Below are positions 6,493-33,625 of a DNA stretch of 64,000 nt, piece after piece. Position numbers and translations under genes: made by a program. The stretch covers positions 192,001-256,000 of the forward strand of contig CBDATS010000008.1 in the NCBI GenBank assembly GCA_965200245.1, given 5' to 3'. This DNA comes from a bacterium (lineage in GTDB: Bacteria > UBA8248). The first letter of the stretch is position 1, and the number at the start of each line of letters is the position of its first letter. The notes below the pieces were generated by a model. The model was not told the origin of the DNA, searched no databases, and worked only from the letters and a program-made list of their open reading frames with translations.

Positions 6493-7450
6493 GGGAATTA
6501 CATACTTGAATCCGCAAGTCTGAATATCCTGATTTTGCGTTTTCCGGGTGTATCTTTTCAGGTCACAGGCGGAATTGCTGTCAGAACCGGTGCATGCGCC
6601 GCCTTCTTCCATTCAGCCGATACACCGGAACTGACAGTAATTCGAACGTGGGCACTTTCGTATATGATTTCCCTTGTTGATACCAACCGTGATCGTCAAG
6701 GGACGCAGCCGTGATACGGCCTGGTTTTACCTCACCCGGGAGGAATGATCTGCTGTCCGCCAGGCACACGACCGCTGGCTCGCGCCGGACAGTTTCGACG
6801 CCACGGGCCGCCAGAAATGCCCGCCAGGCACCCTCACCCGCGCGCTTTGGTGAAAAGGCCTGTTCCCTCCGGACGATCAGCTGTCGTTCGGGGAAGAAAA
6901 TCGTGACACCCCAATCTCCCTAATTATGAGCCATAATAGGGATTATCATACAATCCGCCTTGAACAGACGCTGTTCCGTGGTGAGCCGGGGCGAAGACGG
7001 AAGGACGAGATAGCAGTTCTCGGCGTCGTCCTCCATCACATGCAGGTTGAAAGTCTCCGGCACCGAGATTCCGAACTCCTCGGATACCACGGCCCTCGGC
7101 TCGGAGATCAGACGGGTACGGAACTCTTCACTGTCGCCTGCCTTCTCGATCAGGTGCTCGCGCATCTCGGAAATAGATTTCATTCCGGTCTCCTTATCCT
7201 GAAAAAATGAGTATGGTTTGGTACCCTGATACTTTCGTTTTTTTGCATCGTCATCATGAACAGGGTATGGGATGTTCCGATGGGAAAGCAGGAAATTTTT
7301 CGATGGTTTTCCCGTTTTTCTGTTGGGGAACAGGCTTTCTCCCGGAAGCCCGTCCGTATGCCCCCTGTTCTCCCGGGAAACCGGCGGCCGAAGGCTCCGT
7401 TTTTCCAAAATTCAGGGAGCCAGACTTGCGGATTCAAGTATGTAATTCCC
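6493..7450. mobile_element. non-autonomous cargo-carrying transposon (MITE/MIC-like), 958 bp
   Basis: Perfect 30-bp terminal inverted repeats GGGAATTACATACTTGAATCCGCAAGTCTG (6493-6522) and its reverse complement (7421-7450). Flanked by 8-bp direct repeat TATTTATT (6485-6492, 7451-7458). No transposase inside. Confidence 0.93.
6924..7183 (-). pseudogene. NHLP-leader (proteusin-type) RiPP precursor with frameshift just before the double-glycine site
   Basis: ATG 7183 with AAGGAG RBS; MKSISEMREHLIEKAGDSEEFRTRLISEPRAVVSEEFGISVPETFNLHVMEDDAENCYLVLPSSPRLTTEQ is a typical NHLP leader. The -1 frame from ~6971 reads ASVQGG-LYDNPYYGS-stop (TAA 6924-6926). Confidence 0.85.
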
Positions 7451-13151: not shown

Positions 13152-13155
<4 letters not shown>

Positions 13156-14535: not shown

Positions 14536-14546
14536 GCCGTCTCACG

Positions 14547-14587
14547 CAAGGAACCACCCCGGGGCAGGACTTCGGGGAGGTTCCTTG
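14547..14587. terminator. strong hairpin after the AhpD-like gene (terminator or REP-like)
   Basis: CAAGGAACC...GGTTCCTTG 9-bp arms plus CCCCG/CGGGG inner stem; no clear U tract. Confidence 0.45.
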
Positions 14588-14725
14588 TCGGACATGAATG
14601 TGAAGCTTCCTTGTTTGGTGACAGCGGGCCTGTACGCCGCTCTCGCTGGAAATCATCTGCTCGAATCATCCATAATATGACCCGTTCGCCGCGGGATGCG
14701 GCCTCTCCATTTCCGAGGTTTCCGC

Positions 14726-15190: not shown

Positions 15191-15203
15191 AGGCGATAAA
15201 TGG

Positions 15204-15581
15204 ATGCTCAAGCGAGCCGTCCACCCCGGGGAAATCCTAAAGGAAGAACCAGCGAAATCCGGTGCCTCGCCCACCGAATTCGTGTACCGGAGCAGTGTGC
15301 CGCCTGATCGGGTCAGCCAGATCATCAACAGCGAGAGATGTATAACCGGAGATACATTCTTGTGCTTCGACCTCGAACCCGCGTTCTGGCTCCATCTACT
15401 GATTCATTTTGAACTCGCCCGCGCCGAGGAGGAATCAGGTGAGCGAATCCGCCTTCTACCTACGAGAGAAGATCAGCTGCCTTGGCCCGTAATGCCACGT
15501 GCGATTTCGATGAGAATGATGGTACGGGCTACCCCGTTACCCGCCTCGGTGGGGTTACACACCGTTTCCCTCGTTACCTGA
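15204..15581 (+). pseudogene. higA: degenerate HigA-family antitoxin
   Basis: MLKRAVHPGEILKEE...VPPDRVSQIINSERCITGDT...PAFWLHL; the ALRLARxFG segment is missing and no higB lies upstream. 3' end approximate. Confidence 0.7.
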
Positions 15582-15603
15582 ATTGTATTCCGCAATCCCC
15601 GAT

Positions 15604-16461
15604 CTACAAGTAACACCGCAGCAGTCTGATGCTTCTTTCCGCCGCAATACGGAAGGCGGGTTTCTGATCGATTTGCACCGATAGCACGCCCTCGTAACTG
15701 ATTTCGCGCAGTGCCCGGATGAAGTCGCCGAAGTGAATGTGTCCCGAACCCGGGTAGCCGCGCGTGGAATCAGCCACATGCACGTATTCAATCCACTCGC
15801 GCGCGGCGAAGATGGCTCCGGGGATGGAGGCGTCCTCGGAATTCATCCAGCAACTATCAATCATGAGACCGAGGCCTGCGTGGTTCTCGGCCTTCACGTA
15901 TTCCATCCCCTGACGCACCGTGTTGATGAAGTTCGTCTCATAGCGGTTGTAGGGTTCGATGTATATCTTCATGTTGCGTTCCGCGGCGTAGTCGGCGCCT
16001 GCGCGCATCGCATTTCGCATCCAGCCGTTCGAGGCTTCCCACATCTCGCCCGGAATACACGTGCCGCGAAACCGGCCGATGTTCACCCCCAAGGCGCCAA
16101 GTTTCTCGCCTGCTTCGATCAGAGATCGCAGCCGTGCGGCGCCTGCCTCGCGGATTTCGGCGTCAGGATGACACATCATCACCCCGTCCTGAAGTTCGCT
16201 GGGAGCCGAGCCTATCATCGTCACCGAAAGGCCCGAACGCGCGACCTCCAGCTCCACACCCTGAGCGTCGGGGTCTTTCGGGTCGCGCATGGCGACTTCC
16301 AGAGTGTCATAACCCAAATCCTTGAGCACGGTGAGATTTTCGCCGAAATCCCCGCGAACGCCTGGCATCAGGGGCGAGCGCACCTCGGGTGTGGTGATGA
16401 CGTAGCCTACACTCATACGGCTGGGCTCTGAGTATTCTGCGGCGTGTGGAGATATCGGCAT
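15604..16461 (-). CDS. sugar phosphate isomerase/epimerase (xylose-isomerase-like TIM barrel)
   Basis: IEPYNRYETNFINT, GLMIDS, YVHVADSTRGYPGSGHIHF motifs. Confidence 0.88.
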   Translation of the reverse strand: MPISPHAAEYSEPSRMSVGYVITTPEVRSPLMPGVRGDFGENLTVLKDLGYDTLEVAMRDPKDPDAQGVELEVARSGLSVTMIGSAPSELQDGVMMCHPDAEIREAGAARLRSLIEAGEKLGALGVNIGRFRGTCIPGEMWEASNGWMRNAMRAGADYAAERNMKIYIEPYNRYETNFINTVRQGMEYVKAENHAGLGLMIDSCWMNSEDASIPGAIFAAREWIEYVHVADSTRGYPGSGHIHFGDFIRALREISYEGVLSVQIDQKPAFRIAAERSIRLLRCYL

Positions 16462-16602
16462 TTCGCAGGTCTCCGAGATGAGGTTATTTCATGAAATTTT
16501 CCCAGAGGTTACGATTGTGCACACATATTGTCGAGTGGCGCAATGGGATTTTTCGAAAGGGAGCGCGAAGCCCCCCCCCCCAAAGTCGGAGGGCCATGAA
16601 CT

Positions 16603-17709
16603 TCATGTTCGGATGAGTAGCTGAAATGCGTATCCTGCAATCAGCGAACCCAGAATTCCGGATGCCAGGTAGATAGTGAAAGCTTTTCGTTTTACCAGCG
16701 CCCACACACCGGCCATGGCGGGCACACACGTGGCAGGACCCGCGATGAGAAAGGCCATGGCTGCACCCGTGCCCATGCCTGCGGCGAGGAGCCCTTTCGT
16801 GATGGGGATGGCAGCGACGCCTGAGGTATAGAGCGGAATCCCTACTGCGCTCGCCAGAGGAATCGACCAGGGGTTTTCGTTACCGAGTATCGCGCCTATC
16901 CATGCCGGGTCGATATAGTGGACGATGAGCGCTTCCAGGAAAAACGCCACGACCAGCCATTTTGCGAGATAAAACCCCACGTTCTTCGCCTGAGTGGCGA
17001 AACCGCTCCATGAAGGTATGGGTAATCTGGTGTCATACTGGTTTTTCCTCTCTCCAGGTGCGCCAGGTGCGATGATGCTTCTCAACTCACCATCAAGCTT
17101 CCCGCCCCGCCCGATGAGGTAAGTGGCGTAGCCCGCGCCCGCTCCTATAAGAATTGCACTGACGAGACGCGCGATAGCATAGTCCGTTCCCAGAACGCCC
17201 GCGGTCAGCACGAATTTCTCGGGGCTCATGAGGGGGGAACTGATCCAGAAGGCCATTGCGGGTCCTAGGGGGACACCGCTTGACAACATGGCGGCGATCA
17301 GTGGGATCACGCCGCAAGAACAAAAAGGAACTACCGCGCCCACCGCCGAAGCACTGGCGATGGCCATTCCCTGACGCTTATCGAACACCGCTTTTATCTT
17401 GTCGGCGTATCCAGCGACGGTGACCCATGCCGATATCCCAACGCTCAACAGGAAAAACGGCGCGATGTTCCAGAAGCTGTTCAACATGAATAAGAAGTTT
17501 CGTTTGATCTCCGAAGCGACGAGTCCTGTGGATACCTCACGTCCCGTCACCGCCCACATTATGAGTGCCAGAAGCACACCCATCGAGATGGAACACCACA
17601 GATAGGGAGAAGTCCACCCCGATTTCGGCGCAGGCGCGCAACAGGAGGCCTCATTGGCGGGTGGTGAGTTGCTTTCTCCAGTTGCATTTCTTTCTACTTC
17701 TGTGATCAT
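16603..17709 (-). CDS. permease, DUF318/ArsP-like family
   Basis: GAVVPFCSCGVIP, AMAFWISSPL, GIPLYT and AMAFLIAGPA duplicated-half signature; many TM helices; N-terminal SCC. Confidence 0.85.
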   Translation of the reverse strand: MITEVERNATGESNSPPANEASCCAPAPKSGWTSPYLWCSISMGVLLALIMWAVTGREVSTGLVASEIKRNFLFMLNSFWNIAPFFLLSVGISAWVTVAGYADKIKAVFDKRQGMAIASASAVGAVVPFCSCGVIPLIAAMLSSGVPLGPAMAFWISSPLMSPEKFVLTAGVLGTDYAIARLVSAILIGAGAGYATYLIGRGGKLDGELRSIIAPGAPGERKNQYDTRLPIPSWSGFATQAKNVGFYLAKWLVVAFFLEALIVHYIDPAWIGAILGNENPWSIPLASAVGIPLYTSGVAAIPITKGLLAAGMGTGAAMAFLIAGPATCVPAMAGVWALVKRKAFTIYLASGILGSLIAGYAFQLLIRT

Positions 17710-19775: not shown

Positions 19776-19852
<77 letters not shown>

Positions 19853-19922
19853 TATTTTCGGAAACTCGGATCGCCCTTCCCTCCATACGCGAGGCCACCG
19901 CGGGAGAAAGGGATGAAGGCAT

Positions 19923-19999
19923 GGTGGGTGTAGCTCAGTGGTTAGAGCGCCGGGTTGTGGCCCCGGAGGTCGGGGGTTCAAATCCCCTCACTCACCCCA
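19923..19999 (+). tRNA. tRNA-His (GTG)
   Basis: G-1, acceptor GTGGGTG/CACTCAC, C discriminator, CCA; anticodon arm CCGGG-TT-GTG-GC-CCCGG. Confidence 0.97.
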
Positions 20000-20057
20000 C
20001 GGCATTTACATTTTCTTGAGCGGAATCACTGTTCCGAACAAGACCAGCGGATATCAG

Positions 20058-20134
20058 GCGCCCGTAGCTCAATTGGATAGAGCGTCGGACTTCGGATCCG
20101 AAGGTTGTAGGTTCGAGTCCTACCGGGCGTGCCA
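20058..20134 (+). tRNA. tRNA-Arg (TCG)
   Basis: GCGCCCG...CGGGCGT GCCA; anticodon arm TCGGA-CT-TCG-GA-TCCGA. Confidence 0.96.
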
Positions 20135-21016: not shown

Positions 21017-24000
21017 TCAGGCTCCCATCGGTCCGTTCTGCGGAGAATGCACGTCCACTTCTTCTCTCGTCAGCCATTTTCCTGCCCAGATACGCCATCC
21101 CAGACGCCCCATGTCGTTGCTGATTAAAGAGATGACAGGCACCAGGATCAGGGTGATGACAGTGGCGAAAAGGAGCCCGAAGCACATGCTGATTGCCATG
21201 GGAATAAGAAATTGCGCCTGAAAGCTCTGTTCCAGCAGCATCGGCCCCAACCCCGCGGCCGTCGTCACCGTTGTCAGAATAATCGCCCGCCATCTGGAAA
21301 CGCCGGCCAGATAAAGCGCATCCTCGACCGGCATTCCATCTTTGATACTCCGGTTCGCAAAACCCAGCAGCACCAAAGAGTCGTTCACCACCACGCCGGA
21401 AAGTGCCACGATCCCCAACACGCTCATAATGGATAGGGTGTGTCCCATGATGACATGGCCCCAGACGGCACCCACGACTCCAAACGGAATGGTTGCCATG
21501 ACGATGAGAGGCTGGAAGTAGCTCCTGAACAATATAGCCAAAATTGCAAAAATAACGGCAAGCGCAAAGGCAAAGGCACGAAGAAGGCTGGCAAATGAAT
21601 CTGCACTCGCTTGTGCCTGCCCCCCGAATCTATAGCGTGTTTCCTCGTGGCGACTCAATATCTTTGAAAAAAAATCTTTCTCCAGATCCGTTATGATTTC
21701 GGTGGGATTCGCACGTTTTGGGTCAACCTCGGCCGTCACGTTGACGACTCTGCTACCGGACATTCGCTTGATTTGATCCAGCCCTCGCGTCATCTTTACT
21801 TCTGCTACTTCGTGGAGCGGTACTTCTGCCCCCGAGGATGTTCTGATTCTGATTTCTCTCACATCCTCGATGGAATTCCTCTCATCCAGTGGATAGCGCA
21901 ACTTCATTTTTACGTCATCGCGCCCGCGTTGCAGGCGCAGAACCTGTAGCCCGAAAAAGCGTGCGCGCAACTGCTGTGCCAGATCGTCGAGGCTCACTCC
22001 CAGCACCCGGGCTTGGGGTTTTAGTGATGTTCGTAACTCGAGCTTCCCGTCTCTGAAATCGTTTTCGATGGTGTGAACCCCGGGATACCTCCTCAACTCC
22101 TGCGCAAACGCCATCGACACTTTTTTGAGGTCATTGATGTTATTCCCGTAAAATTGCACGTCGATGGGCTTTCCGCCAGGTGGCGTATTATTTATTGGGT
22201 GGAAGTGAAGGGTCACAACATCCGAAATTTCCCCCGTCTTGTCGCGCCATTGATTGGAAATTTCTTCCGAATTGATTCCCCTGGCTTCCGAGGGAAGCAA
22301 TTCGGCAAATAACAATCCTGCATGGCTGCCTCCCCTTCCGGGCATCGCAAATACGTGCTGGATAACCGGCTCCCCCGTTCTTGATTGCAAGTCTTTGTTG
22401 AGAGACAGGATTGCTTTCTCAATTTTTTCTGTGGCGAGTTTGGTTCGCTCTACCGGGGTGCCTCTGGGAAATTCGAAACCCGATACCAACCAGTCGGAAT
22501 CAAGCTTTGGGAAAAACAGGAACCTCACATGTCCGCCTACGGAAAGTCCTATCGTTAGCATAAAAATCGCCAACGCAATGGCAGCGACCAGGTACCTGGC
22601 GTCAAGGCAAAACTTCAGAATCGGCCCATAGATCCGGTGGATCAGCATGTTCACCGCCCTGTCGATAGCACCCCTGATACGTGATCCGAGCGTATCCTTC
22701 TTCGCAGGTCGGACCCAGTGGGCTAGGTGTGCTGGCAGGATGAACAGCGACTCGATGAGCGAGGCTATTAGAGCTGCGATGATGGCCAACGGGAGCATCG
22801 CCATAAACTTCCCGAGGTTGCCCTCCATCATCGTCAAGGGGATAAAAGCTACAATGGATGTCGTAACTGCGGCGATAACGGGCAAAATCACCTCATGACA
22901 ACCATCTATAGCAGCCTGAATACGATTTCCCCCCCTTTGCATATGAGAATAAATATTTTCAGCCACGACGATGGCGTCATCCACCAGGATTCCAAGAACC
23001 ATGATAAAGGAGAACATGGTTATCATGTTGAGCGAACCACCGGAGACATGCAGGAACCCGAGCGACGTCAGTAGGGAAACGGGAATTCCCATCGCCACCC
23101 AGAAAGAGAGGCGAATGTTCAAGAACAACCACAGGGAAATGAATACCAGCACAAGGCCAATGCGCCCGTTTCGCAAGAGAAGATCGAGACGGTTCTGTAT
23201 CAGGCGCGACCTGTCCCCCCAATACGAAAGGTGAAGCCCCTTGGGCAGTTCTTTTTGTTTTTTCTTTACGTATTCCTGGATTGTTTTCGCAATGCTGAGG
23301 GCGTCTTCCGCTCCCGTCCGAAATACCCTGATAAGTGTCGCTGGCTGTCCGTTGAACCGACCCGATTTGTCGTTTTCTTCAAAGCCGTCCGTCACGCGGG
23401 CGATGTCGCCGAGCCTCAGGATGGTGCCATCCGGGCGCGTAAGTATTTCAAGCTGCTCGAACTCCCTGCCCGTATAACGCTTTCCCAGCGTTCGGACTCT
23501 GATTCTTTGCTCCGAGGAGCGGATGTCCCCTCCCGAGAGTTCGAGTACGTTTCTGCGAATGATAGACGCAAGTTGAGCGAACGTAAGACCGTGACGCCGC
23601 CGCGTCTCCTCGGACACCTCAATCGTGATTTCCCACTCCCGCAATCCGTCCATCGTTATCTTGGAAATGTTGGGCATCCCCAATAAATCGTCTTTCACCT
23701 CAGTGGTCCTGCGCTTGAGAATCCACTCCGAAACTTCGCCATACAGTGAGAGATAGCCTACAATGGACCTTTGCTTTACTTCCGTGATTACAGGTTTTTC
23801 GATATCGGCGGGAAAAGTGTTGATGCGGTCAATCTCGGAACTGATATCTTCCATCAACTCCCGGGAGTCGTCTACCCAGGAATGCAGCTTCATGTTCACG
23901 TTGCAGCGGTGCTCGAAGGCGGTCGAGGTAATTTCTTTCACTCCCTCCACGCTGGAAATGGCTTCTTCAATCTTGATGCAGACGCCTTCTTCCACTTCTG

Positions 24001-24172
24001 CAGGGCTCGCGCCCTCCCATGTCACTTGGATGGTCACCGCGCTGAGCGAGAACTCCGGGAACTCTTCGCTTCTGATCTGGAAGACGGCGATAACGCCGAC
24101 GATGAGCATTATCACCATTAAAAGATTGGCAAAAACGGAATTATGGGCAACCCACTCTATAACTCGCTTCAT
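21017..24172 (-). CDS. RND transporter permease (AcrB/AcrD/AcrF family)
   Basis: 1051 aa; GASPAEVEEG, LGILVDDAIVVAENI, GVVVNDSLVL, RWRAIILTTVTT and QAQFLIPMAIS motifs. Confidence 0.93.
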   Translation of the reverse strand: MKRVIEWVAHNSVFANLLMVIMLIVGVIAVFQIRSEEFPEFSLSAVTIQVTWEGASPAEVEEGVCIKIEEAISSVEGVKEITSTAFEHRCNVNMKLHSWVDDSRELMEDISSEIDRINTFPADIEKPVITEVKQRSIVGYLSLYGEVSEWILKRRTTEVKDDLLGMPNISKITMDGLREWEITIEVSEETRRRHGLTFAQLASIIRRNVLELSGGDIRSSEQRIRVRTLGKRYTGREFEQLEILTRPDGTILRLGDIARVTDGFEENDKSGRFNGQPATLIRVFRTGAEDALSIAKTIQEYVKKKQKELPKGLHLSYWGDRSRLIQNRLDLLLRNGRIGLVLVFISLWLFLNIRLSFWVAMGIPVSLLTSLGFLHVSGGSLNMITMFSFIMVLGILVDDAIVVAENIYSHMQRGGNRIQAAIDGCHEVILPVIAAVTTSIVAFIPLTMMEGNLGKFMAMLPLAIIAALIASLIESLFILPAHLAHWVRPAKKDTLGSRIRGAIDRAVNMLIHRIYGPILKFCLDARYLVAAIALAIFMLTIGLSVGGHVRFLFFPKLDSDWLVSGFEFPRGTPVERTKLATEKIEKAILSLNKDLQSRTGEPVIQHVFAMPGRGGSHAGLLFAELLPSEARGINSEEISNQWRDKTGEISDVVTLHFHPINNTPPGGKPIDVQFYGNNINDLKKVSMAFAQELRRYPGVHTIENDFRDGKLELRTSLKPQARVLGVSLDDLAQQLRARFFGLQVLRLQRGRDDVKMKLRYPLDERNSIEDVREIRIRTSSGAEVPLHEVAEVKMTRGLDQIKRMSGSRVVNVTAEVDPKRANPTEIITDLEKDFFSKILSRHEETRYRFGGQAQASADSFASLLRAFAFALAVIFAILAILFRSYFQPLIVMATIPFGVVGAVWGHVIMGHTLSIMSVLGIVALSGVVVNDSLVLLGFANRSIKDGMPVEDALYLAGVSRWRAIILTTVTTAAGLGPMLLEQSFQAQFLIPMAISMCFGLLFATVITLILVPVISLISNDMGRLGWRIWAGKWLTREEVDVHSPQNGPMGA

Positions 24173-24382: not shown

Positions 24383-25408
24383 TCACGCAGCGCGCAGGAA
24401 ACAAACGATGTAGCCTTTTACGCTGGTTTCCCGTTCCCCGATGACGACTTTAATATGATTGACGCCCCAAAAGAGGTGCATCATCTTGCCGTCGGGGCCG
24501 AAGAATCGCTCGCTGCCGATGCAACTGATCAGTGCGGCACCCTTGTCAGCCAGAAACCAGCCGCGGTCCGCCATCGGGGAGAGGAGCCTGCCCCATGCGC
24601 CGTGGTCGGTCGATTTGTTGAAATGGAGTTCCATTCCCATGCGCGGGCTCAGTCCTTCTCGCGTTAAATCGAGAGATAGATAGACACGGTCCGGGAAATT
24701 CTCGATCATCGTCAGAACGTCCTCGACAACCACCATGCGTCCGGGATGCCCCATAGCCTCCAGAAAGGCAGAGATTTTCGCCCGGGGACAAAACATCACC
24801 AATCTCATGGGCGAGGGATTGCGTCCTTGCATGACGGCGCACTAACTCAGGCGGGTATTCGGCGGAAAAACTCGCCAGATCCCTTCGAGAAAGTGCAAAC
24901 GACGAGGATCCGGCGCTCCCCCCGTGGCAAAAGCCAGCGCGGCGTCGACTATACCCGCGTTTAGGTGCTCTACGCGCCCGTCACGGCGAAGGTTGAGAAA
25001 CAGGCTTGGCAGGGGCAGACCGTGTTCTTTCAATGTGGAGGCAACATCGTATTCGAAAATCGCGGAATCGAACAGGCCAGAAAGAAAGGAGTCGGGACGT
25101 GCCAACTCATCAAAATAGTTCGCCAGGGCCGCGGTCGATGCGTCGGTTTCTTCCCGGTTGCCGCGCTCAATCAGCCAGCGCGCCATCGGCGAGTCCGGCA
25201 GAACCGCCAATGAAAAGTCGGCACCAGCTTCCGCGTCGGAAAGGTCACATTCGAAGCCGAATTTCGCGTCCGCCACAGAGGCGGGCAACTCCGACATCCC
25301 TTCAAGAAGACGATTCCACCCCGGCTCATCAATCAGCCGGGGCGGTATCTGCGAACGGATGAACGTGTCGAGCACAGAAGCAAAATCGCTATATCCCGTA
25401 CGTTTCAT
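24383..25408 (-). pseudogene. putative peptide prenyltransferase-like RiPP maturase interrupted by in-frame TAG (24844-24842)
   Basis: ORFs 24842..25408 and 24383..24832 are in frame (NTRLS-TAG-CAVMQGR). FGFECDL...ADF...FEYDV...PSLF...LSLDL...PRMGMEL...NHIKVV...KGY pattern resembles proteins found beside NHLP/Nif11 precursors; the function call is inference. Confidence 0.6.
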
Positions 25409-25527
25409 CTGGATTTTCCGACACCTCTATCCGGCGCGGAAAAACCGGAAGGGACCTGATATTTTGCTATCATCCACAACTCTAATACTGCCAATAATTA
25501 TCTCTTTGATTAAAATTAGCGGATATC

Positions 25528-25557
25528 AAGATTTGCGGATTTAAGGAAATAATTACC
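25528..25557. repeat. degenerate copy of the 6493-7450 element terminal inverted repeat
   Basis: AAGATTTGCGGATTTAAGGAAATAATTACC vs CAGACTTGCGGATTCAAGTATGTAATTCCC: 23/30 identical by manual alignment. Adjacent GGATAT also matches the sub-terminal sequence of the left IR. Confidence 0.75.
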
Positions 25558-25753
25558 TAGGATAGGGATACTGTGTGCTCCAAAATGTCAAAGGCCTCAG
25601 AAGCCGGGCACACAGGGAACATCTCACCCATGAGCGTGGGTTTGCCAACTCCTGTCTGGCCGCAATCACTTCAAACTCGTGATCCAAGACCCAAAAGGGC
25701 AGGACAAGGCATATGCGAGGGCGAAATTCCTGTTCTGACGAGGGTCAATAACG

Positions 25754-26710
25754 ATGCACTTCTCTCCTGACACAACGTGTCGTATGCGCGATGCGATCGA
25801 CAGGGGCTTGACGTTTCTCGATTCATGTGTGGGTCACGACGGGCAATGGCCTTCCTATTGCTCTGGACGGGTAGGGGACCAGTATATTCAAAAGCACGAA
25901 GAAGGGAGTCCCTTTTTCGCCATGCTGGGTGTTCTTTCCCTTTCGGAGATTGACGACTCGCGCGCGCGAAATATTGTGGGAAGGACGCGCCGGCACCTCT
26001 CTGAGACAATGCTCTATCTCGGTATCTGGAGATACTGGGATGCGCTGCCCCCCTATGCCGATGACTCTGCCGTAGGCTCACTGGCCCTCGGGCCGCATCC
26101 CCTGTTGCTCGCCGGACGCAATGTCGACCTGTTTCTCCGCCATCGCAACGACAGCGGCTTGTTTCTGACTTGGTTCGAGGGCCAGACACCCGAAAACGAC
26201 GTGGACTCCGTCGTTAATGCCAATGTGGTTGCCTACCTGGGTGACAATGGGGAGACGCGCCCCGCCCATGAGTGGTTGAAGTCGCTGGTGGAAGGCGGCG
26301 GGGACTTGAGCGAGACCATGGTCTACTATAAAGAGGATATGGACCTCTACGGCGCGCTCGTTCGAGCTAGCGAGTACGGCAAACCCGCCTTTGCAGGATT
26401 GCGTTCTAAACTCGGCCACCTGATTGAAAGCGCGTGTAAGGAAGGGGTGACCTACGGGGATCAGTTGCGCACCGCTCAAGCTCTAGTCGCGCTGGCGGAA
26501 CTTGACGCGTTGCCATCGCTGGCGAAACTCGAACAGACGATGGATTTCATTCTTTCGAAACAGAAAGCCGACGGCCGATGGCCGGAATCACCAGGTTCCT
26601 ATGGCCCCCGGCCGCCCGATCCGATTCGAACCCTGGTCTTTTGCTCCCAAGCTTATGATACCGTCCTATGCATTGAGGCGTTGCACAAGGTTTTGGCCAG
26701 AGCCGCCTGA
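25754..26710 (+). CDS. prenyltransferase/squalene-hopene-cyclase-repeat protein (class II terpene cyclase-like)
   Basis: QW-type repeats (FLDSCVGHDGQW; FILSKQKADGRW), LPPYADDSA at the DxDD position, and DVDSVVNANVV motif. Confidence 0.7.
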   Translation: MHFSPDTTCRMRDAIDRGLTFLDSCVGHDGQWPSYCSGRVGDQYIQKHEEGSPFFAMLGVLSLSEIDDSRARNIVGRTRRHLSETMLYLGIWRYWDALPPYADDSAVGSLALGPHPLLLAGRNVDLFLRHRNDSGLFLTWFEGQTPENDVDSVVNANVVAYLGDNGETRPAHEWLKSLVEGGGDLSETMVYYKEDMDLYGALVRASEYGKPAFAGLRSKLGHLIESACKEGVTYGDQLRTAQALVALAELDALPSLAKLEQTMDFILSKQKADGRWPESPGSYGPRPPDPIRTLVFCSQAYDTVLCIEALHKVLARAA

Positions 26711-26767
26711 GATATCCCTCATATTCCAATATCTACCCAGCACGCCCCGATACAGTTTCGGCACTGC

Positions 26768-27064
26768 TCACCGGCCCTTGTGGCCTATGGAGATTGATCT
26801 CTTCTTCTGCCTTCGATGTGGTGGTGAAGAATCCCTGCACAGCCCTGCTAACTGTTCATCGGTCAAACGCGGGCTGAGAGGTAACATCAGATGAGTGCGT
26901 TCCATGTTGTCTTCATGAACCTCCAACTTGGATCCATCCGGGAAATTCACCGTAGAACTCTGCCGCGGTGACTGATATCGGCTCATTCAACGGCCAGGCC
27001 CGGACCGCTTCATCGTGTCCGCCTTGCCGAGGATGTCTTCTCCGATCTGCTTTACCGGGCACAT
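26768..27064 (-). pseudogene. second NHLP-leader RiPP precursor, multiply frameshifted
   Basis: Stitching frames gives MCPVKQIGEDILGKAD/DEAVRAWPLNEPISVTAAEF/VNFPDGSKLEVHEDNMERTHLMLPLSPRLTDEQLA/AVQG.., colinear with the precursor at 6924-7183. Confidence 0.8.
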
Positions 27065-27598
27065 CGTACATCCGCTCTCGAAAGAATAGGCATGGATTAT
27101 ATGGCCCGCAATGCGTTTCCCTGCATTGTTATCACGGCATATCAATGAAGTCCCCGTCCCGGAACTTAACCAGATGTCCAACGCCTCGCTGTTCTGCATG
27201 TTCCGTCGCTATCGCCATATGCGGCTCGCAACGGGTCAATCCGGTGGCAGACACGCCGAGTCCCCCACCGGCCAAATCGCACACCTGCACAGCCTGTAAC
27301 CGGTGCTCAGCACCCGTCTGCCCGGGTCGGGGGTACATCTCCGCACTATGGTGTGAAAAGTCGCAACATGGCTTCCTCGTAGGTTGTTGTGCCCGTCCTT
27401 CATATCCCGAGATGCAATTCCAGTGGTCTGGCCAATTTCATGAGACTGGTCAAACCCGTAATAAACGGAAATGGTTTTAGGATATTTATTTCACATGAGG
27501 TAATTTGTGCGACGGTTTTCTGGACACCTTCATGACGAGACGAAGTTGCCCGGAACATTCCAGGGTAACAACAAAGGGCGCAGGGACGACGGCGCTTC

Positions 27599-30541
27599 TC
27601 ACGCCGACTGGCGCTTTAGGAAATCGCGAAACAGGCCATCGGCCTCACTGAGTTCCTCGAACGTGCCTTCCCGGACAACCTTCCCGGCCTGAAGAACATA
27701 TATGCGGCTCGCCTGGCGGATGGTGGAGATACGATGAGCAATGACGACCCGCGTTGCACTGGCTTTCTCTATGCCTTCCATGGTCAATTTCTGGCTCTTC
27801 GCATCAAGCCAACTGGTGGCTTCGTCAAGAAACAATATGCTTGGCTTGCGCACCAGCGCCGCCGCAATGCGGATGCGTTGTTGTTGTCCGCCGGAAAAGG
27901 TCGAGCCGGTTCCACCCATCGGAGTGTGCATTGCCATCGGCATGGCGGAGATTTCCTCGTTAACCGCAGCCTGCCTGGCCGCCTGCCAGGCGTCGTCTAT
28001 GCTAAGGTTTTCATCCACGCCATTGATGTTACTCATCACTGTGCCCGGCAGCAGGCTGTTTTCCTGCATAACCACGCCGATCTGGCGGCGAATAGAATCG
28101 GGATTGAGGCGGGCAAGATCGTGGCCGTCGTAATAGACCGTGCCGGAAGACGGCGTTTCGAGGCCGAGTGCGAGGCGGACGAGAGTGCTTTTCCCCGACC
28201 CGGATTCCCCAACGATGGCGATGAACTCGCCCGATTTCGCGCGGATTGTTACGTCGTCGAGAACGAGTGGGTCAGATTCCGAATAGCGAAAACTCACATG
28301 GTCGAAGAGGATTTCGCCGCTCAATTTCACTTCTACTCCGTCATGCATCCCACCCTCGGGCAGTTCTTCCATGATTTCCCGTGACTGTTCTCCAGAAGGA
28401 ACAAGCGATGCGATCGTCTCGAATGACAGACTGAACATAATGATCGATCCGACGAACATCATTGACGCAGAGTAAACGACCAGGAAGTCTCCGATCGAGA
28501 AATGAGCCCTGTCCTGGGTGAACGCGACGGCGATGACCGCAGCAGTCCACAAGGGAGGAACAGAAAGGGCGAACGCCACCAGGCATTCGTTCACCCGTGA
28601 AATACTGATCTCGGCCAGCTTCTGGTCCCGGTACTGTCGTGCCCACCATGCGTAAGCGGACGGCTCGGCCCCTGTCGCCCTCAATTTGCCTATTCCGTTG
28701 ATTAGCTGGAAAAGATGACTAGCCAGCTTGCGCACGGCACTGAAACGGCGTCGGTGATGTTTGATCTGGAGCAGGCCAAGGGCGGCGGTGAGACCTAGAG
28801 TCACGATGCCAAGGACGAGAATCAGCCATCCCATCGCGGTATTGTAGACAAAAACCAGAGCGAAGGTTGGAAACAGGAACAGCATGGATAGTATTGCGCC
28901 GGACGCTATAGCAGAAAACTGGTCGCGAATAACCTGGAACGTCATGGCCCGCGTCGCCAGTTCGCCGGCGGTGAACTGGCGGAAAAACGCCGGGCGTAGC
29001 CGCAGGAGGCGATCCCATATCGCTGCCACGACGCGAGTAGTAGCCCGGCCTTCGATTCGCATCATCGCTGTACCGCGCAACATGTTCAGGAATCCCGTCG
29101 TCACTGCCATCAGCAACAACAGACCGGTCACATATACCAACGGCCTATGTTCGCCCGCCGGCGCCAATATGTCAGCCAAAAGACCGATGACTGTGGCAGG
29201 AACCAGCAGAATTGCGCCAGCGATTATGCCCGCTAGTATCACCTGAATGAAATCCTGAGTCTGCTTCCAGAATGCGGTACGGAGGAGGTCACGGGGACTG
29301 GCTGGTCGATCGGTAGGCAGGGGACGATGCACCATCACGGCATCGTCATTAAACTCGGCGGCATTCGCCGCAGTTACGCGCCGGGATGCGCCCGACAGAG
29401 GATCGATGCAACGATACCATCCGAGACGCCCGGGAATTAGCGCGACCGGCTGGCCATCGTTGCGTCGAGACGCAATCATCGCGCCACTGTCTCCATACCA
29501 CCATCGATCTTCCTCCTTCAGTCGTATGCATCGAACGCGCAAACCCGATGCAATCAGGACCGCATTGAGGTCGTTTTTCGCTTCAGCGGTTTCAGGGACC
29601 TGAATGGGTATGTCTTCATGGGCACCGACGAGCTGCAAAGCTGCAAGGAGTCCGGATTCATCGTCAAACTCTTGACGACGGAATTGGTCGATAACGGAGA
29701 AAAGACGATGCCGAGAAGCAGACTTGTTCTGTCTGCGCCATGTTGTCCGGTCGCGCTGGAAGTTCGCCTCGTCTGCAAGCAGCAGTAGGCGGTTAAGGGC
29801 CTCGACTGCAAGCGCGAGTCGATGAAACTCCGGCAAATGGAGGGACACCAGGTCGGCAAGCGCTATATCTTGGGAGGACATTGCTTCGATCTCGGCCGAC
29901 TCGGGCAGCGTAGCCCAGATTCCGGGGCTGAGCGGCATCAACCCCGACTGTCCAGAACCTGCCTCTTCCGTGCCTAGATAGGACGCCCGGACATCAAGGC
30001 CATGAAACCAGATAACTCCCCGTTCCGAAGAGATGATACCCGATGCGGTTAGCGTCAATCCGGCTTCAAGCAAGCTGTCGGCACGTGGCCTCGGGTCGAT
30101 ATCGCGAATGATCGCTTCGGCGAATTCGCGAACCCAGGTATCGACCTGTTCAGTCAAGGCGGCACGTGCCATCTGATCGGGCAGGCAGTCCAGCAATTCC
30201 GCGAGCGGCACCGGGCGCAGAATCGCACCGGGAAGTCCCTTGGCAATCAGACTAAACCCGGAACTATCATCACTGTTCTGGCCAAACAGGATGCGACCGC
30301 GTCGTGCGCGAACCATGTGCTTGAAAGCTGATGTGGTGTTATCGTCATGACACTCAACCACGAAAACATCGACCGTGCCACGTTCCACAACCCAGGCCAT
30401 GTTCGAGTCGTCAAGCCGCATTGGCCGGTTGCCGGCGCAGGGAACAGGTTTTCCGAGGGAGCACAAAATCTCTGCGAATCCAGCGCCATCGCCGGGTTGT
30501 TCCGATGTGGTATTGCGATTAGGCTGATCGGATGAGTTCAT
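27599..30541 (-). CDS. NHLP/NHLM bacteriocin system ABC transporter, ATP-binding/permease subunit (no peptidase)
   Basis: N-terminal WVVERGTVDVF extension, WWYGDSGAMIA, TM domain, GESGSGKST, FSGGQQQR and LFLDEATS. Confidence 0.9.
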   Translation of the reverse strand: MNSSDQPNRNTTSEQPGDGAGFAEILCSLGKPVPCAGNRPMRLDDSNMAWVVERGTVDVFVVECHDDNTTSAFKHMVRARRGRILFGQNSDDSSGFSLIAKGLPGAILRPVPLAELLDCLPDQMARAALTEQVDTWVREFAEAIIRDIDPRPRADSLLEAGLTLTASGIISSERGVIWFHGLDVRASYLGTEEAGSGQSGLMPLSPGIWATLPESAEIEAMSSQDIALADLVSLHLPEFHRLALAVEALNRLLLLADEANFQRDRTTWRRQNKSASRHRLFSVIDQFRRQEFDDESGLLAALQLVGAHEDIPIQVPETAEAKNDLNAVLIASGLRVRCIRLKEEDRWWYGDSGAMIASRRNDGQPVALIPGRLGWYRCIDPLSGASRRVTAANAAEFNDDAVMVHRPLPTDRPASPRDLLRTAFWKQTQDFIQVILAGIIAGAILLVPATVIGLLADILAPAGEHRPLVYVTGLLLLMAVTTGFLNMLRGTAMMRIEGRATTRVVAAIWDRLLRLRPAFFRQFTAGELATRAMTFQVIRDQFSAIASGAILSMLFLFPTFALVFVYNTAMGWLILVLGIVTLGLTAALGLLQIKHHRRRFSAVRKLASHLFQLINGIGKLRATGAEPSAYAWWARQYRDQKLAEISISRVNECLVAFALSVPPLWTAAVIAVAFTQDRAHFSIGDFLVVYSASMMFVGSIIMFSLSFETIASLVPSGEQSREIMEELPEGGMHDGVEVKLSGEILFDHVSFRYSESDPLVLDDVTIRAKSGEFIAIVGESGSGKSTLVRLALGLETPSSGTVYYDGHDLARLNPDSIRRQIGVVMQENSLLPGTVMSNINGVDENLSIDDAWQAARQAAVNEEISAMPMAMHTPMGGTGSTFSGGQQQRIRIAAALVRKPSILFLDEATSWLDAKSQKLTMEGIEKASATRVVIAHRISTIRQASRIYVLQAGKVVREGTFEELSEADGLFRDFLKRQSA

Positions 30542-32708
30542 GGTAAAGACCCATTCCTATTGCCATTAACTCCTCATGCGTGCCGCGCTGAACCTCCTTG
30601 CCGTGCTCAAGTACCACGATCAGGTCACTGTCTCGGATAGTGCTCAACCTGTGCGCGACGATTAGACAGGTGCAGCCACGTCGGCGTATCGCATCGTCAA
30701 TCTGCAACTCACTCACGGCGTCGAGTGCGCTGGTGGCCTCATCGAGAATCAGGACAGATGGGTTGCTTGTCAACGCCCGAGCGATCTCCAGACGTTGCCG
30801 TTGCCCCCCGCTGAAATTGCGCCCGCCCTCTTCGACTGCCGAGGCATAGCCCAGTGGGCGGGAGGTGATTTCTTCATGAATAGCTGCGTCACACGCCGCC
30901 GCCACGAGCGTGTGATCGGGTATCGTCGGGTTCCACAGGGCCAGGTTGTCATTCACGGTGCCAGCAAAAAGAACGATATTCTGGTCCACCATCGAGACGG
31001 AACTGGTAAGTATCTCACGAGGTATCTCGCTCCGAAGGTGGCCGTCAAACCGGACTTCACCGGACCAAGGCTGGTAAATACCAGCAACCAGAAGAGATAG
31101 TGTCGATTTGCCGGAGCCGCTCGGCCCTACGATTGCTACGCGCTGTCCCGGCTCAATTGTGAGATTGAAATTCTCGATCAATGGAGGACGATTTGGTTGA
31201 AAACCGAAGGTGACATTGTTGAGTTCCACGCGGCCAACGAGTTGCATCCGCCGGTTCAGCGTGACAACCCTTTCCGACTCGGTCCCTTCATCTCCGGCGA
31301 GTTCTTCGTCCAACTCGGCATCCAGTACATCATCCAGCCTGCGTAGATTGGCAGACATGGTTTGCAGTATGTTGGCGAACTGGACGAACCTTCCCACCGG
31401 TTGCAGGAAATTCATCGTCAGGACGTAAAAGGCGGTAAGTACACCAAGCGTCATTTCACCCGACATCACCCGCCACCCACCAAAGCCGATGACCAAGGCA
31501 GAACCGAGTACAAGAACCGTTGGCAGCAGCGATTGGACGACATGGCCGAGTTCCATGAATTTTTGTCTCGCGTTGATTTCACGTGCTTGATAGCCGCTGA
31601 AACGCGAGAAGAAACTGTTTTCCGAAGCGGTTGCCCTCAGCGTGTCCATGATGCTCAACCCGGCCATGCCGTGGCCCATCATCCTGCCCTGCTCATGGAG
31701 CAATGCATGGTTATGGTCGGTTTGCAGTTTCGTGACATAATGCATTACAAAGAGGCAAAGCAGGCCGAGCCCACCGACCGCAGCGCCCAGCAACGGTTCG
31801 AGATAGAGCATCAGAACCAGGAAGGCCAAGCTCATGATCAGTTGAATGACGATTCCTATCAACTGGACGGATCCGATCGATGCGATCAGGTCGATCATCT
31901 GCATGCGTGAGGTCAAATCGCCTGCGAAGCGGCGGCTGAAAAACTTCATTGGCAAACGCATTAATCGGTTCAGGTAGCGGTCCGATTGCTGGATGGACAG
32001 GACAAGAGAAACCTTTCGTAGTATGCGCATCTGGAGCCATGTCAACACATAAGATGAAAGGCCGACTGCAATGGTCAATCCGAGCACGATGCCGATCCAG
32101 TCATCCTGCGCATCGCCGATAACATGGTCTACGAAGGCGGATAGCAATATTGGCAGGGCGAGCCCAGACAGCACCAAGAGCAGGCCGCAGATGATGGCGT
32201 AGGCGAGAGCCGGACGCACGGGGTTCAGCCATGGCCAGAACTGTTTGAGCACTCCGGGAGGTGGTTCACTGGTCTCAAAGGATGGTCCCGGCTCCATTTC
32301 CATGGCAACGCCGGTAAAGCATCGGTCGAATTCGTCTTCACTGATAATACGGTGTCCCACCGCTGGATCGTTCACATAGTAACGGCCGTTTTCAACCCCC
32401 TCTAGGACGACAAAATGCCGGAACTCCCAGAACAGGATGAGTGGGATTTTCATTGGTGGCAGTTGGTGAAGTTCCTTGCGCCATGCCGAAGGTTGCAGAC
32501 CGTAGACGCGGGCCGCCTTGACAATGTCGGCGGCGCTGGCACCATCGCGTCCGACGGCGCAAGCCTCGCGTAACTCCTGTAGCGGAACCCATTTTCCCAG
32601 ATACGCGAGGATAATGCCGAGGCAAGCTGCACCGCATTCCGTGTTTTCGAGTTGCAAAAGTATAGGGGTGCGAACGCGAGCGCCGGACCTGCGTCTGAAC
32701 AAGGCCAT
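30519..32708 (-). CDS. NHLP/NHLM bacteriocin system ABC transporter with C39 peptidase
   Basis: RVRTPILLQLENTECGAACL and FWEFRHFVVLEG (catalytic Cys/His intact), GPSGSGKST, FSGGQRQRLEIARAL. Confidence 0.95.
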   Translation of the reverse strand: MALFRRRSGARVRTPILLQLENTECGAACLGIILAYLGKWVPLQELREACAVGRDGASAADIVKAARVYGLQPSAWRKELHQLPPMKIPLILFWEFRHFVVLEGVENGRYYVNDPAVGHRIISEDEFDRCFTGVAMEMEPGPSFETSEPPPGVLKQFWPWLNPVRPALAYAIICGLLLVLSGLALPILLSAFVDHVIGDAQDDWIGIVLGLTIAVGLSSYVLTWLQMRILRKVSLVLSIQQSDRYLNRLMRLPMKFFSRRFAGDLTSRMQMIDLIASIGSVQLIGIVIQLIMSLAFLVLMLYLEPLLGAAVGGLGLLCLFVMHYVTKLQTDHNHALLHEQGRMMGHGMAGLSIMDTLRATASENSFFSRFSGYQAREINARQKFMELGHVVQSLLPTVLVLGSALVIGFGGWRVMSGEMTLGVLTAFYVLTMNFLQPVGRFVQFANILQTMSANLRRLDDVLDAELDEELAGDEGTESERVVTLNRRMQLVGRVELNNVTFGFQPNRPPLIENFNLTIEPGQRVAIVGPSGSGKSTLSLLVAGIYQPWSGEVRFDGHLRSEIPREILTSSVSMVDQNIVLFAGTVNDNLALWNPTIPDHTLVAAACDAAIHEEITSRPLGYASAVEEGGRNFSGGQRQRLEIARALTSNPSVLILDEATSALDAVSELQIDDAIRRRGCTCLIVAHRLSTIRDSDLIVVLEHGKEVQRGTHEELMAIGMGLYHELIRSA

Positions 32709-33625
32709 TACCGAGAGGATGGTCCCGTATTGGCCAGAAGGGCCAGTGGCGATACCGTCTCCAGAATGATATGGATCCGGCAGGGCGCGGCATCTGACGG
32801 TACCGTATTTGGTTGTCCAAGCATGATTAGGCGCACCATATGTAGAGGCATTCTTTCTTTCCTCTCACCTTCTGCCAAAGCTATGCGGGACAACCACGCG
32901 GGTGGTAGTGACGCTCTGGGGGCTACTGTTTTTACCTCGGCAGGCACGGACTGCTGGTTGCGCAGATTGTCGATGATGACGCGCGCCCTCATACTCTTTC
33001 GCAGTTTCTGCGCCCGCGCCGGCGGAAGAAATGCCAAGATTTCCAGACCATCGTCTCCGCCTCTGCGCAGATCCGATACTGGCGTGCCGACATCCACGGC
33101 TTGTCCGACATGAAGATGAAACGCCGACACTACGCCCGAATAGGGAGCGACAATCGCGCTCGCAGCTCGGTGTGCGAGCAGTCCTACCAGCTCTTGGCGG
33201 GCCACCGCCAGAAGCCCGCCGTCGAAATTGGTACCTGGTCCGTCTTGACTGGCCTCGCGCTCCAACAAGGCGATTCTCTTCCGCAGAACGGTCAGTTGTG
33301 TATCGAGTTCTGGCAACCGAAGGCGAGCAATCGGCTGGCCCTCGGCAACTTCGTCGTTCACTCGAACCAGAATTTCCGACACGGTGCCCGTCGTTCCGGA
33401 CAGTATGGTATGACGCTCTCCCGAACGCAGGATGAAGCCGTTCGCGGTCATGCTTCGTTCCAGGCTGCCAAACGCCAACCAGACGCAAGCGGCGGCGAAT
33501 GCGATAAGAAAACCGGTCAGGATGAGCCATTCATGCGGCGCCGTAATGCGCAGCAAATCATCCAGAGGATCCGGATTTGATTGCCTGAGAATGGCACGTT
33601 CCCGAAAGAGCCCTAGCGTAAACAT
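32708..33625 (-). CDS. NHLP/NHLM bacteriocin system secretion protein (HlyD family)
   Basis: LFRERAI..QSNPDPLDDLLRITAPHEW N-terminus, single TM, lipoyl motifs; first gene of the exporter triad. Confidence 0.9.
   Translation of the reverse strand: MFTLGLFRERAILRQSNPDPLDDLLRITAPHEWLILTGFLIAFAAACVWLAFGSLERSMTANGFILRSGERHTILSGTTGTVSEILVRVNDEVAEGQPIARLRLPELDTQLTVLRKRIALLEREASQDGPGTNFDGGLLAVARQELVGLLAHRAASAIVAPYSGVVSAFHLHVGQAVDVGTPVSDLRRGGDDGLEILAFLPPARAQKLRKSMRARVIIDNLRNQQSVPAEVKTVAPRASLPPAWLSRIALAEGERKERMPLHMVRLIMLGQPNTVPSDAAPCRIHIILETVSPLALLANTGPSSR

Follow-up and report, generated by a model that had tools for sequence, protein, structure and literature searches.

Probable remains of an NHLP-leader peptide pathway with separate genes for a prenyltransferase-like and a terpene-cyclase-like protein

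Genes of the cluster

The contig CBDATS010000008.1 of the bacterial assembly GCA_965200245.1 (GTDB lineage Bacteria; UBA8248) harbours a small group of genes that probably represents the remains of a pathway for a ribosomally synthesised peptide that is post-translationally modified (RiPP) and carries an NHLP-type leader. The whole stretch of DNA that was analysed, hereafter called the window, comprises 64,000 nucleotides (positions 192,001 to 256,000 of the contig), and all positions given below are counted within it. The genes in question code for a predicted ABBA (alpha-beta-beta-alpha) prenyltransferase-like protein (gene A), a putative single-domain class II terpene-cyclase-like protein (gene B), two NHLP precursors and an NHLP-type export machinery (Table 1). 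The exporter genes and the precursor remnant next to them (copy 2) occupy the minus strand; gene B converges on this remnant and gene A diverges from gene B, so that the two putative activities are indeed encoded by separate, divergent genes, as the original prediction had it.

Table 1. Positions of the cluster genes, their lesions and motifs (P numbers denote homologous proteins, L numbers related loci; aa, amino acids)
Feature	Position	Strand	Basis
Gene A, predicted ABBA-type peptide prenyltransferase-like, 341 codons, interrupted by one in-frame stop	24383..25408	-	Read-through frame, intact homologues, fold model
In-frame TAG within gene A, codon 189	24842..24844	-	Alignment to P0001-P0003
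Gene B, putative single-domain class II terpene-cyclase-like, 318 aa, full length	25754..26710	+	Family profile
Y-A-D-D replacing the D-x-D-[D/S/T] acid motif of the family	26054..26065	+	Comparison with relatives
NHLP precursor remnant, copy 2, at least 3 frame changes	26768..27080	-	TIGR03793, three-frame translation, DNA alignment with L001 precursor
NHLP precursor copy 1, leader intact, frame lost at leader/core junction	6920..7183	-	TIGR03793, translation
Copy 1, minus-1 frame tail: ASVQGG / LYDNPYYGS, then stop	6924..6971	-	Translation
NHLP export ABC, permease/ATPase subunit, 980 aa	27599..30541	-	TIGR03797 E 2.6e-205, 683.9 bits (cut-off 709.4); Pfam ABC_tran, ABC_membrane
NHLP export ABC with C39 leader peptidase domain, 729 aa	30519..32708	-	TIGR03796 E 2.1e-271, 902.2 bits (cut-off 853.3); Peptidase_C39 E 1.2e-32
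HlyD-type adaptor of NHLP export, 305 aa	32708..33625	-	TIGR03794 E 4.3e-23, 81.9 bits (cut-off 156.2), partial; Pfam HlyD_3

Gene A had been described as split and is listed as two open reading frames (ORFs) of 188 and 149 aa. Since both belong to one continuous 341-codon frame with a single TAG, the interruption is a nonsense codon and not a boundary between two genes. The TAG aligns with a Trp residue in all three close homologues (P0001-P0003) and is therefore one base away from TGG, the sole Trp codon. These homologues are 60-64% identical to the window protein, 328-370 aa long and all uninterrupted. Recoding of the codon was ruled out, as TAG terminates 12 of the 38 Pfam-supported genes of the window and is hence an ordinary stop here. 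A word-indexed search with gene A returned four proteins in total, namely P0001-P0003 and the window's own N-terminal piece. A profile of P0001-P0003, searched against 1.84 billion representative proteins, revealed a family of 792 representatives at E<=1e-3, of which 234 pass 1e-10 and 41 pass 1e-30; most of them are ~350 aa long. The window protein gave no Pfam or NCBIfam match, not even a threshold of E<=10 brought up a Pfam prenyltransferase family for an alignment of 106 family members, four further members were likewise without a match to a curated prenyltransferase model, and the family profile matched none of the PDB sequences. That is, gene A belongs to an uncharacterised family of predicted ABBA prenyltransferases that has neither a Pfam or NCBIfam model nor a solved structure.

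Assignment of gene A to the ABBA prenyltransferase-like proteins comes from structure prediction. AlphaFold2, run on the family alignment with P0002 (63% identical to the window protein) as first sequence, produced a model with a mean pLDDT of 94.0 and a pTM of 0.91, in which the order helix-helix-strand-strand recurs five times, corresponding to a five-fold alpha-alpha-beta-beta barrel. Comparison of this model with the PDB by Foldseek returned 62 matches at E<=1e-3. Those listed are ABBA prenyltransferases only; the best values were obtained with FunA (2.4e-6) and PagF (4.2e-6), and CloQ, AnaPT, PatF, DMATS1, CymD, Orf2/NphB, EpzP, PirF, LimF, AmbP1/3, IptA and DciF are among the others. The prenyltransferase fold that had been suspected for this family is accordingly what the model displays. 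The polar residues that are near-invariant in this family (E52, D63, E118, R201, H317, K319, K330 and Y332 in P0002 numbering) lie on barrel strands of the model and, the stop aside, are retained in the window protein. The TAG falls within strand 5 (residues 185-191) of the barrel of P0002, and a full-length barrel is therefore not encoded in this genome. An estimate combining Chou-Fasman rules with hydrophobic moments also gave (HH EE) x 5 for gene A. It was set aside in favour of the AlphaFold model, because the same method erred on gene B, to which it assigned many strands although the homologues of known structure are all-helical.

Gene B contains one canonical QxxxGxW motif (residues 270-276) and an intact frame, in agreement with the previously noted QW-repeat protein with a YADD motif. 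As a single sequence it matched none of the PDB sequences. A family profile built from 29 members and searched against the same sequences matched squalene-hopene cyclase (3e-21), bacterial drimenol synthase (9mhs_B, 1.9e-19, in one stretch covering profile positions 22-309 of 317), AstC (2e-15) and, weakly, MstE (0.004), as well as two 360-aa chains named 'squalene-hopene cyclase' (8paj, 8pak) and a 'prenylcyclase' (6ij1). In the alignment, the P-P-D-l-D-d-T of the gene B family is in register with the P-D-D-L-D-T-T of drimenol synthase, and a second PDB entry, a D-to-N mutant, has Asn at the column of the family's middle Asp. The D333N exchange within the DxDTT motif of drimenol synthase abolishes cyclisation, the middle Asp being essential (partial text of PMC9128629). 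The window protein retains this residue (D103, aligned to D333) and carries Tyr (Y101; codon TAT, GAT in the related locus L001) at the position of the first Asp. First and middle Asp are both present in all 81 gene B domains from related loci, which leaves the window copy as the sole one with Tyr among 82; at the same time, Y101 is its single deviation among the 32 columns that are >=90% conserved. Judged from these sequence comparisons, gene B encodes a class II terpene-cyclase-like protein with a single domain, as had been proposed.

Relatives of gene B in other contexts point in the same direction. Plasmid pC052_D of Nostoc sp. C052 encodes a 1218-aa protein (L082 7060-10716) that joins a PhyH dioxygenase and a UbiA prenyltransferase to a gene-B-type domain (E 2.4e-81) and to TPR repeats. 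Among loci with gene B only (73 ORFs scanned), polyprenyl synthetase-like genes adjoin it in L031 and L032 and UbiA genes in L056 and L068. The fusion and these neighbours thus support an isoprenoid role of the gene B family. Glycosyltransferase and sulfotransferase genes surround that of the Nostoc protein, and its vicinity is free of RiPP genes. Three relatives possess an N-terminal NHLP leader-like domain (P0018, TIGR03793 54.1 bits; P0027; L023 9641-10948, NHase_alpha), which is followed by a linker of ~50 aa and the cyclase domain. This leader-like domain might dock the cyclase on the leader-binding prenyltransferase or mark the cyclase for export. Further relatives (P0006, P0009, P0031) are tagged PF28380.1, a model missing from the Pfam copy searched, so that a curated family for the gene B domain may already exist.

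Both NHLP precursor genes of the window have lost their reading frame. The remnant beside gene B had been recognised before, whereas copy 1 lies outside the part of the window then considered. In copy 2, the ORF 26768-26986(-) matches TIGR03793 as a fragment (positions 35-72 of 77, E 5.5e-5, 22.9 bits), and the earlier part of the leader is found in two other frames, reaching ~27080. Copy 1 scores 65.0 bits (cut-off 50.9), the match covering just model positions 3-70 of 77. Compared to the precursor of L001, copy 1 has four bases fewer right after ...GAACAG (...RLTTEQ). Its minus-1 frame holds the lost end of the leader, the Gly-Gly site and the core, that is, the counterpart of ...SEQMASISGG / GHGGTYP in L001; the zero-frame tail reads RLFKADCMIIPIMAHN. 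The same minus-1 relation is seen in copy 2 at the same spot (~26850-26870, compare 6965-6975 in copy 1), in addition to two upstream frame changes. Consequently, Gly-Gly-type site and core are out of the leader frame in both window copies, whereas the precursors of L001 and of the other listed relatives have them in frame. No slippery heptamer or homopolymer is present at the shift site. The shared minus-1 exit after GAACAG may be a coincidence, a shared lesion or something programmed.

The HlyD / C39-ABC / ABC triad is complete as predicted, with three NCBIfam export models matched at 27599-33625(-). Together with the precursor model, all four models of the NHLP/Nif11 bacteriocin export system (TIGR03793, TIGR03794, TIGR03796, TIGR03797) are matched in the window. 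A short HlyD-type adaptor is common to relatives, where it forms stop-to-stop frames of ~300-330 aa. The second ABC subunit (27599-30541) has an N-terminal extension of ~296 aa beyond the TIGR03797 model, for which no Pfam match was obtained. Haft et al. reportedly named, in 2010, cyclodehydratases, LanM and radical S-adenosylmethionine (SAM) proteins as the usual partners of NHLP/Nif11 export. These partners are absent from the window: in accordance with the original prediction, 41 further ORFs scanned include no YcaO, LanM or RiPP-type radical SAM gene, and the sole radical SAM protein among them is MoaA (5403-6386) with a Mob_synth_C domain.

Linkage of genes A and B with NHLP precursors in related loci

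Scanning genomes with the alignment of gene B as seed yielded 125 relatives, the best 80 loci of which were kept and then searched with our own profiles. By their labels, the hosts are metagenome-assembled genomes (MAGs) of Nitrospirales, Acidobacteria, Alpha- and Gammaproteobacteria, Spirochaetia and others. Among these best 80 of 125 loci, gene A is present within 10 kb in 31, an NHLP gene in 27, both in 24, the exporter in 31 and all three in 18. Linkage is concentrated in the 30 closest loci (gene A 23, NHLP 21, A plus NHLP 21, exporter 22, all three 16), as compared to the remaining 50 (8, 6, 3, 9 and 2, respectively). Homologues of the two genes thus do co-occur with NHLP precursors, as the original prediction required. 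Seven of the 30 closest loci have neither gene A nor an NHLP gene, and in two of these (L016, L027) the exporter triad is still found. A tree built from 82 gene B domains places the window copy as sister to that of L001, which stems from a MAG labelled Nitrospirales (72-73% identity). Both are placed inside a well-supported clade of 35 rows, 27 of which come from loci with gene A or NHLP genes.

The arrangement of gene A and the precursors is similarly close, as an NHLP gene ends <=600 nt upstream on the same strand for 18 of 32 strong gene A copies. The tree of gene A copies contains one clade with precursors ending in ...[D/N/P/V]W and another with ...FWDD[W/F] or ...GWGQS... cores. To describe the cores, 69 NHLP ORFs with complete leader and short tail were used, five matches being left out (fusions, long tails, partial leaders). 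Trp is present in 67 of the 69 tails, within the last five residues in 52 and terminal in 42; it accounts for 7.4% of the 1520 tail residues, the median tail being 21 aa long. Multi-gene arrays occur as well: L011 contains 12 NHLP ORFs, 3 A and 1 B, L017 contains 11 NHLP, 4 A and 1 B, and L018 contains 6 NHLP, 6 A and 3 B. None of 109 flanking ORFs of 12 loci encodes another prenyltransferase, a polyprenyl synthase, YcaO, LanM or radical SAM protein; provided that gene B cyclises a prenyl group, gene A is therefore the sole candidate to supply its prenylated substrate.

Genes A and B are separate in the window and in the loci; they are divergent in the former and adjacent and co-directional in L001. 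In the size range searched (763-2175 aa), which starts above the 557-763 aa expected of prenyltransferase-cyclase fusions, no longer protein with a gene B domain fused to A was found. An apparent fusion in L039 was ruled out, since a deletion joins two-thirds of A to half of B, and P0088 consists of a gene B fragment followed by gene A.

Several of these loci have features of their own. In L001 (3234-7773), the trio of NHLP, A and B genes directly follows cas9, cas1 and cas2. JmjC-domain proteins are encoded in two multi-precursor clusters and a PrnB-like (Trp-chemistry) protein beside another (L017 11115-12665, L024 1041-2750, L011 3440-4462); these may be further tailoring enzymes. L023 (MAG labelled Pseudomonadales, 2888-17506) is srp-like, its precursor ending in ...EEQLEAISAG-LCCCW and a YcaO gene directly preceding a gene A copy. 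This locus further holds the fusion of leader-like and cyclase domain mentioned above, an amine-oxidase-type flavoprotein, a fatty-acid-desaturase-domain protein and two ABC exporters. On plasmid pPg_03 of Pseudanabaena galeata (L081 8962-10755), a gene A domain and a 2-oxoglutarate (2OG)-Fe(II) oxygenase form one protein, and LanM, a protein with weak likeness to gene B and a Nif11 precursor that ends in ...IPPIKW are encoded beside it.

A candidate pathway, its probable decay and its described counterparts

Taken together, we consider it probable (roughly 0.75) that the region represents the remains of a proteusin-type (NHLP-leader) RiPP pathway, which in working form would attach an isoprenoid to an aromatic residue close to the C-terminal end of a short core and then cyclise it, and which is decaying while its exporters are still whole. 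The data above establish the identities of the genes, their linkage, the fold of the gene A family (in a homologue) and the profile homology between gene B and class II cyclases, acid motif included; as to prenyl donor, acceptor residue, chemistry and sequence of events, we infer the following scheme for intact relatives. The precursor would be bound via its NHLP leader of ~75 aa, which a Gly-Gly site and then a tail of 21 aa in the median follow. Gene A, as a soluble ABBA-barrel prenyltransferase, would move a prenyl diphosphate onto the core, the usual target presumably being a C-terminal or near-C-terminal Trp. The middle Asp of the DxD motif of gene B would then protonate the terminal double bond and thereby close rings in the attached chain. 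Finally, the C39-ABC protein, the second ABC protein and the HlyD-type adaptor would cleave at the Gly-Gly site and export the product.

A number of observations weigh against this reading. The TM-scores of the Foldseek matches of the P0002 model are moderate (0.37-0.54) at sequence identities of 7-18%, and the ABBA fold is predicted for the homologue P0002, not for the window protein itself. Identity of the window gene A to those A copies that adjoin precursors amounts to no more than 29-33% (~32% for that of L001), and its nearest homologues P0001-P0003 come without known genomic context. The sequence of gene B alone is weakly recognised (Pfam SQHop_cyclase_C, 21 bits versus a cut-off of 26.1). 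The ancestral core of the window, LYDNPYYGS, and the core of L001, GHGGTYP, contain Tyr and no Trp, whereas Trp is found in 67 of the 69 tails of relatives. No isoprenoid-supply gene is present among the 41 further ORFs of the window or in the 12 related loci scanned. Lastly, gene A domains are found fused to a methyltransferase (P0165), behind a sulfotransferase (P0180), as a tandem pair (P0144) and with the 2OG-Fe(II) oxygenase of L081. The fusions with methyltransferase, sulfotransferase and oxygenase would also fit a substrate-binding scaffold.

Hence, gene A might not be a prenyltransferase at all, but a barrel-shaped scaffold that binds the precursor, or another Trp-modifying enzyme, presenting the core to partners. 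In addition to the three fusions just mentioned, the lack of a prenyl diphosphate synthase nearby, in the window and in 12 loci, would be in line with such a role, and so would the Foldseek match PatF, which we take to be an inactive ABBA protein. We nevertheless regard a scaffold as very unlikely, given that conserved Arg, Lys, His, Tyr and Glu residues occupy inward-alternating strand positions, as is reportedly the case in diphosphate-binding ABBA barrels, and that gene B requires a prenylated substrate in clusters without any other prenyltransferase. Moreover, a fusion of methyltransferase and prenyltransferase is known, namely AgeMTPT (partial text of PMC13290415).

For gene B, the corresponding doubt is that an alpha/alpha-barrel protein with a non-terpenoid role, e.g. 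in peptide binding or hydrolysis, resembles the cyclases in fold only. The match to the beta-domain of drimenol synthase over 288 of 317 positions (E 1.9e-19) with the acid motif in register, the invariance of DxD in 81 of 81 relatives, the fusion of the domain to a UbiA prenyltransferase in Nostoc and the polyprenyl synthetase-like or UbiA neighbours in some B-only loci argue otherwise. A non-terpenoid role therefore appears highly improbable, even though single-sequence matches stay under the curated cut-offs and the leader-like domain in front of two relatives and of the L023 protein could mark the protein as exported cargo.

As for the state of the pathway, it is most likely no longer functional in this genome, because gene A has a stop at a conserved Trp within a barrel strand, gene B has Tyr at an otherwise invariant Asp, the leader/core frame is lost in both precursor genes, and the three export genes alone look whole. 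Thus, the prediction of an isoprenoid-modified RiPP pathway found support as to its type, but not as to a working pathway in this organism. The window copy is of less interest than its intact relatives from uncultured bacteria.

Alternatively, the cluster could work as a variant, the halves of gene A being made separately and assembling, YADD altering the chemistry, and copy 1 being used as is, with its tail RLFKADCMIIPIMAHN, or through a minus-1 shift that restores ASVQGG-LYDNPYYGS. An ATG is indeed found three codons past the TAG of gene A. However, it is not preceded by a Shine-Dalgarno-like sequence, and the stop lies inside a barrel strand, although the near-invariant polar residues are retained. 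In gene B, only one of 32 conserved columns deviates and the catalytic middle Asp is present; yet the first Asp is found in 81 of 81 relatives. Likewise, an identical minus-1 shift at an identical spot is needed by both NHLP copies, but the site lacks a slippery heptamer or homopolymer and copy 2 has extra upstream frame changes. Intact exporters would be compatible with a working cluster, as would PalX, which shows that a Gly-Gly site is not obligatory in an NHLP precursor (partial text of PMC10853753). On balance, four independent lesions in one small cluster are a better fit to decay, and a working variant appears distinctly unlikely.

The lesions could also be assembly or sequencing errors, the cluster being intact in the organism. 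The assembly is probably of the metagenome type, and frameshifts are a frequent error class of long-read assemblies. Two of the lesions, however, are substitutions (the TAG and TAT codons) and not indels, and copy 1 loses its frame through a gap of 4 bases, as compared to L001, that lies outside a homopolymer. As long genes nearby are unbroken (1051, 1046, 980, 776 and 729 aa), a generally error-ridden assembly is unlikely, and we rate errors as a rather improbable source of the lesions.

A further possibility starts from the cores: window and L001 could form a Trp-free branch, in which very short Tyr cores (LYDNPYYGS, GHGGTYP) would undergo prenylation at Tyr or at a different non-indole site, followed by cyclisation. 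In that case, the divergent gene A subfamily, the Tyr-for-Asp exchange and the shared minus-1 junction may be features of a working variant and not signs of decay. Chemistry on an acceptor other than Trp has not been reported for this pair of maturases in the literature covered. Beyond this branch, unfused A and B genes, in clusters with up to 12 NHLP genes (mostly Trp-ended) and up to 6 prenyltransferase paralogues, could constitute a large and for the most part unexplored source of terpenoid-cyclised peptides, the bacteria in question being uncultured and probably associated with sponges. We consider the Trp-free branch, taken jointly with this reservoir, unlikely.

Returning to the pathway of prenylation and cyclisation that we favour, the window system is of the same kind as the fused maturases NctPC and ChrPC, here with separate genes. 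According to the partial text of a review (PMC13290415), which attributes both enzymes to Hubrich et al. (Chem 2024), NctPC combines an ABBA-fold prenyltransferase domain, of low similarity to cyanobactin prenyltransferases, with an MstE-like monodomain cyclase; this enzyme first attaches a geranylgeranyl group to Trp and then cyclises it. ChrPC consists of a prenyltransferase domain resembling isoprenyl diphosphate synthases of the trans type (trans-IDS) and a cyclase domain (partial text of PMC13290415). The fused prenyltransferase-cyclase maturases which the original prediction had invoked are thus real. They give rise to RiPPs with cyclised isoprenoid moieties, the product being named 'steromaze' (PMC13647313). 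As in NctPC and ChrPC, a peptide prenyltransferase and a single-domain class II cyclase would act beside a ribosomal precursor, judged from the layout of the window and from the presence of A and NHLP genes by gene B in 21 of the 30 closest loci. Unlike NctPC and ChrPC, with which the comparison is by description, A and B are unfused, the hosts are different, the precursor arrays are mostly Trp-ended and the window copy is decayed. The abstract of Hubrich et al. reportedly calls the maturases 'commonly' fused and also predicts units of this type among proteusin, Nif11 and lasso peptides. A description of unfused prenyltransferase and cyclase genes with NHLP precursors was not found in the literature searched, the primary report on NctPC and ChrPC being outside that search.

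Each half of the putative pathway has relatives among characterised enzymes. MppC of Moorena producens is a soluble alpha-beta-beta-alpha prenyltransferase that requires a long Nif11/NHLP-type leader and prenylates a near-C-terminal Trp; it belongs to a Nif11/LanM lanthipeptide cluster for which the partial text of PMC12715784 describes no cyclase. The gene A domain of Pseudanabaena lies in a similar cluster with Nif11 and LanM. PalX of Paenibacillus alvei resembles the window precursors in being of the NHLP type with a short aromatic core (DNVRRFFW), the C-terminal Trp of which is prenylated by PalQ. In contrast to the predicted barrel of gene A, PalQ is a ComQ/trans-IDS-like all-helical enzyme, and its three-gene cluster is, in the partial text of PMC10853753, without cyclase or export triad. 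The drimenol synthase C-domain, AstC and MstE share profile homology and a DxD[T/D] acid motif with gene B. They differ in using free prenyl diphosphates or small meroterpenoids, and drimenol synthase has a HAD domain, whereas gene B is free-standing or, in three cases, preceded by an NHLP leader-like domain, with Tyr for the first Asp in the window copy. Finally, srp proteusin clusters from marine sponge microbiomes comprise SrpE with the core LCCCW, the YcaO protein SrpC and the brominase SrpI, modification being leader-dependent (partial texts of PMC10858898 and PMC12615548). NHLP precursors ending in Trp are common to both, and the tail in L023 is LCCCW as in SrpE; unlike srp clusters, the window has no YcaO or halogenase.

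The first report of peptides with cyclised isoprenoids dates from 2024 and concerned fused enzymes, whereas both putative activities occur here as separate genes. Such separate A and B genes beside NHLP precursors and exporter are found in MAGs of many bacterial phyla. The gene A family is thereby linked to Trp-ended proteusin precursors, including the srp-like cluster with the published SrpE core. Intact relatives, e.g. L006, L011, L017, L018 and L021, represent ready targets of heterologous expression for natural-product discovery; in L021, a precursor is located at 132-392, gene A at 434-1549 and gene B at ~9743-10981. In the present genome, a secondary-metabolite cluster appears to be seen mid-decay, with its exporter genes still whole.

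Neighbourhood of the cluster

Window and L001 exhibit no synteny beyond the NHLP, A and B genes. Promoter and terminator scans of the window performed no better than on shuffled sequence, and an Rfam scan detected nothing beyond three tRNA genes (Arg-tct, His-gtg, Arg-tcg) at 19776-20134. The latter are located ~0.9 kb from the efflux pump gene that abuts gene A. GC content is 0.52-0.57 across 20-34 kb, as compared to 0.58-0.61 on either side. With its tRNA cluster and lower GC content, the region could be a genomic island; no att-like direct repeat was found between the tRNA cluster (19776-20134) and 34100. The AcrB-like gene beside gene A is a lone one without adaptor, and the interval between the two contains only a 68-aa ORF without family match. 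A resistance-nodulation-division efflux pump in fact adjoins each RiPP part, that is, at 7653-12313 (adaptor and AcrB-like pair) by precursor copy 1 and at 21017-24172 by gene A.

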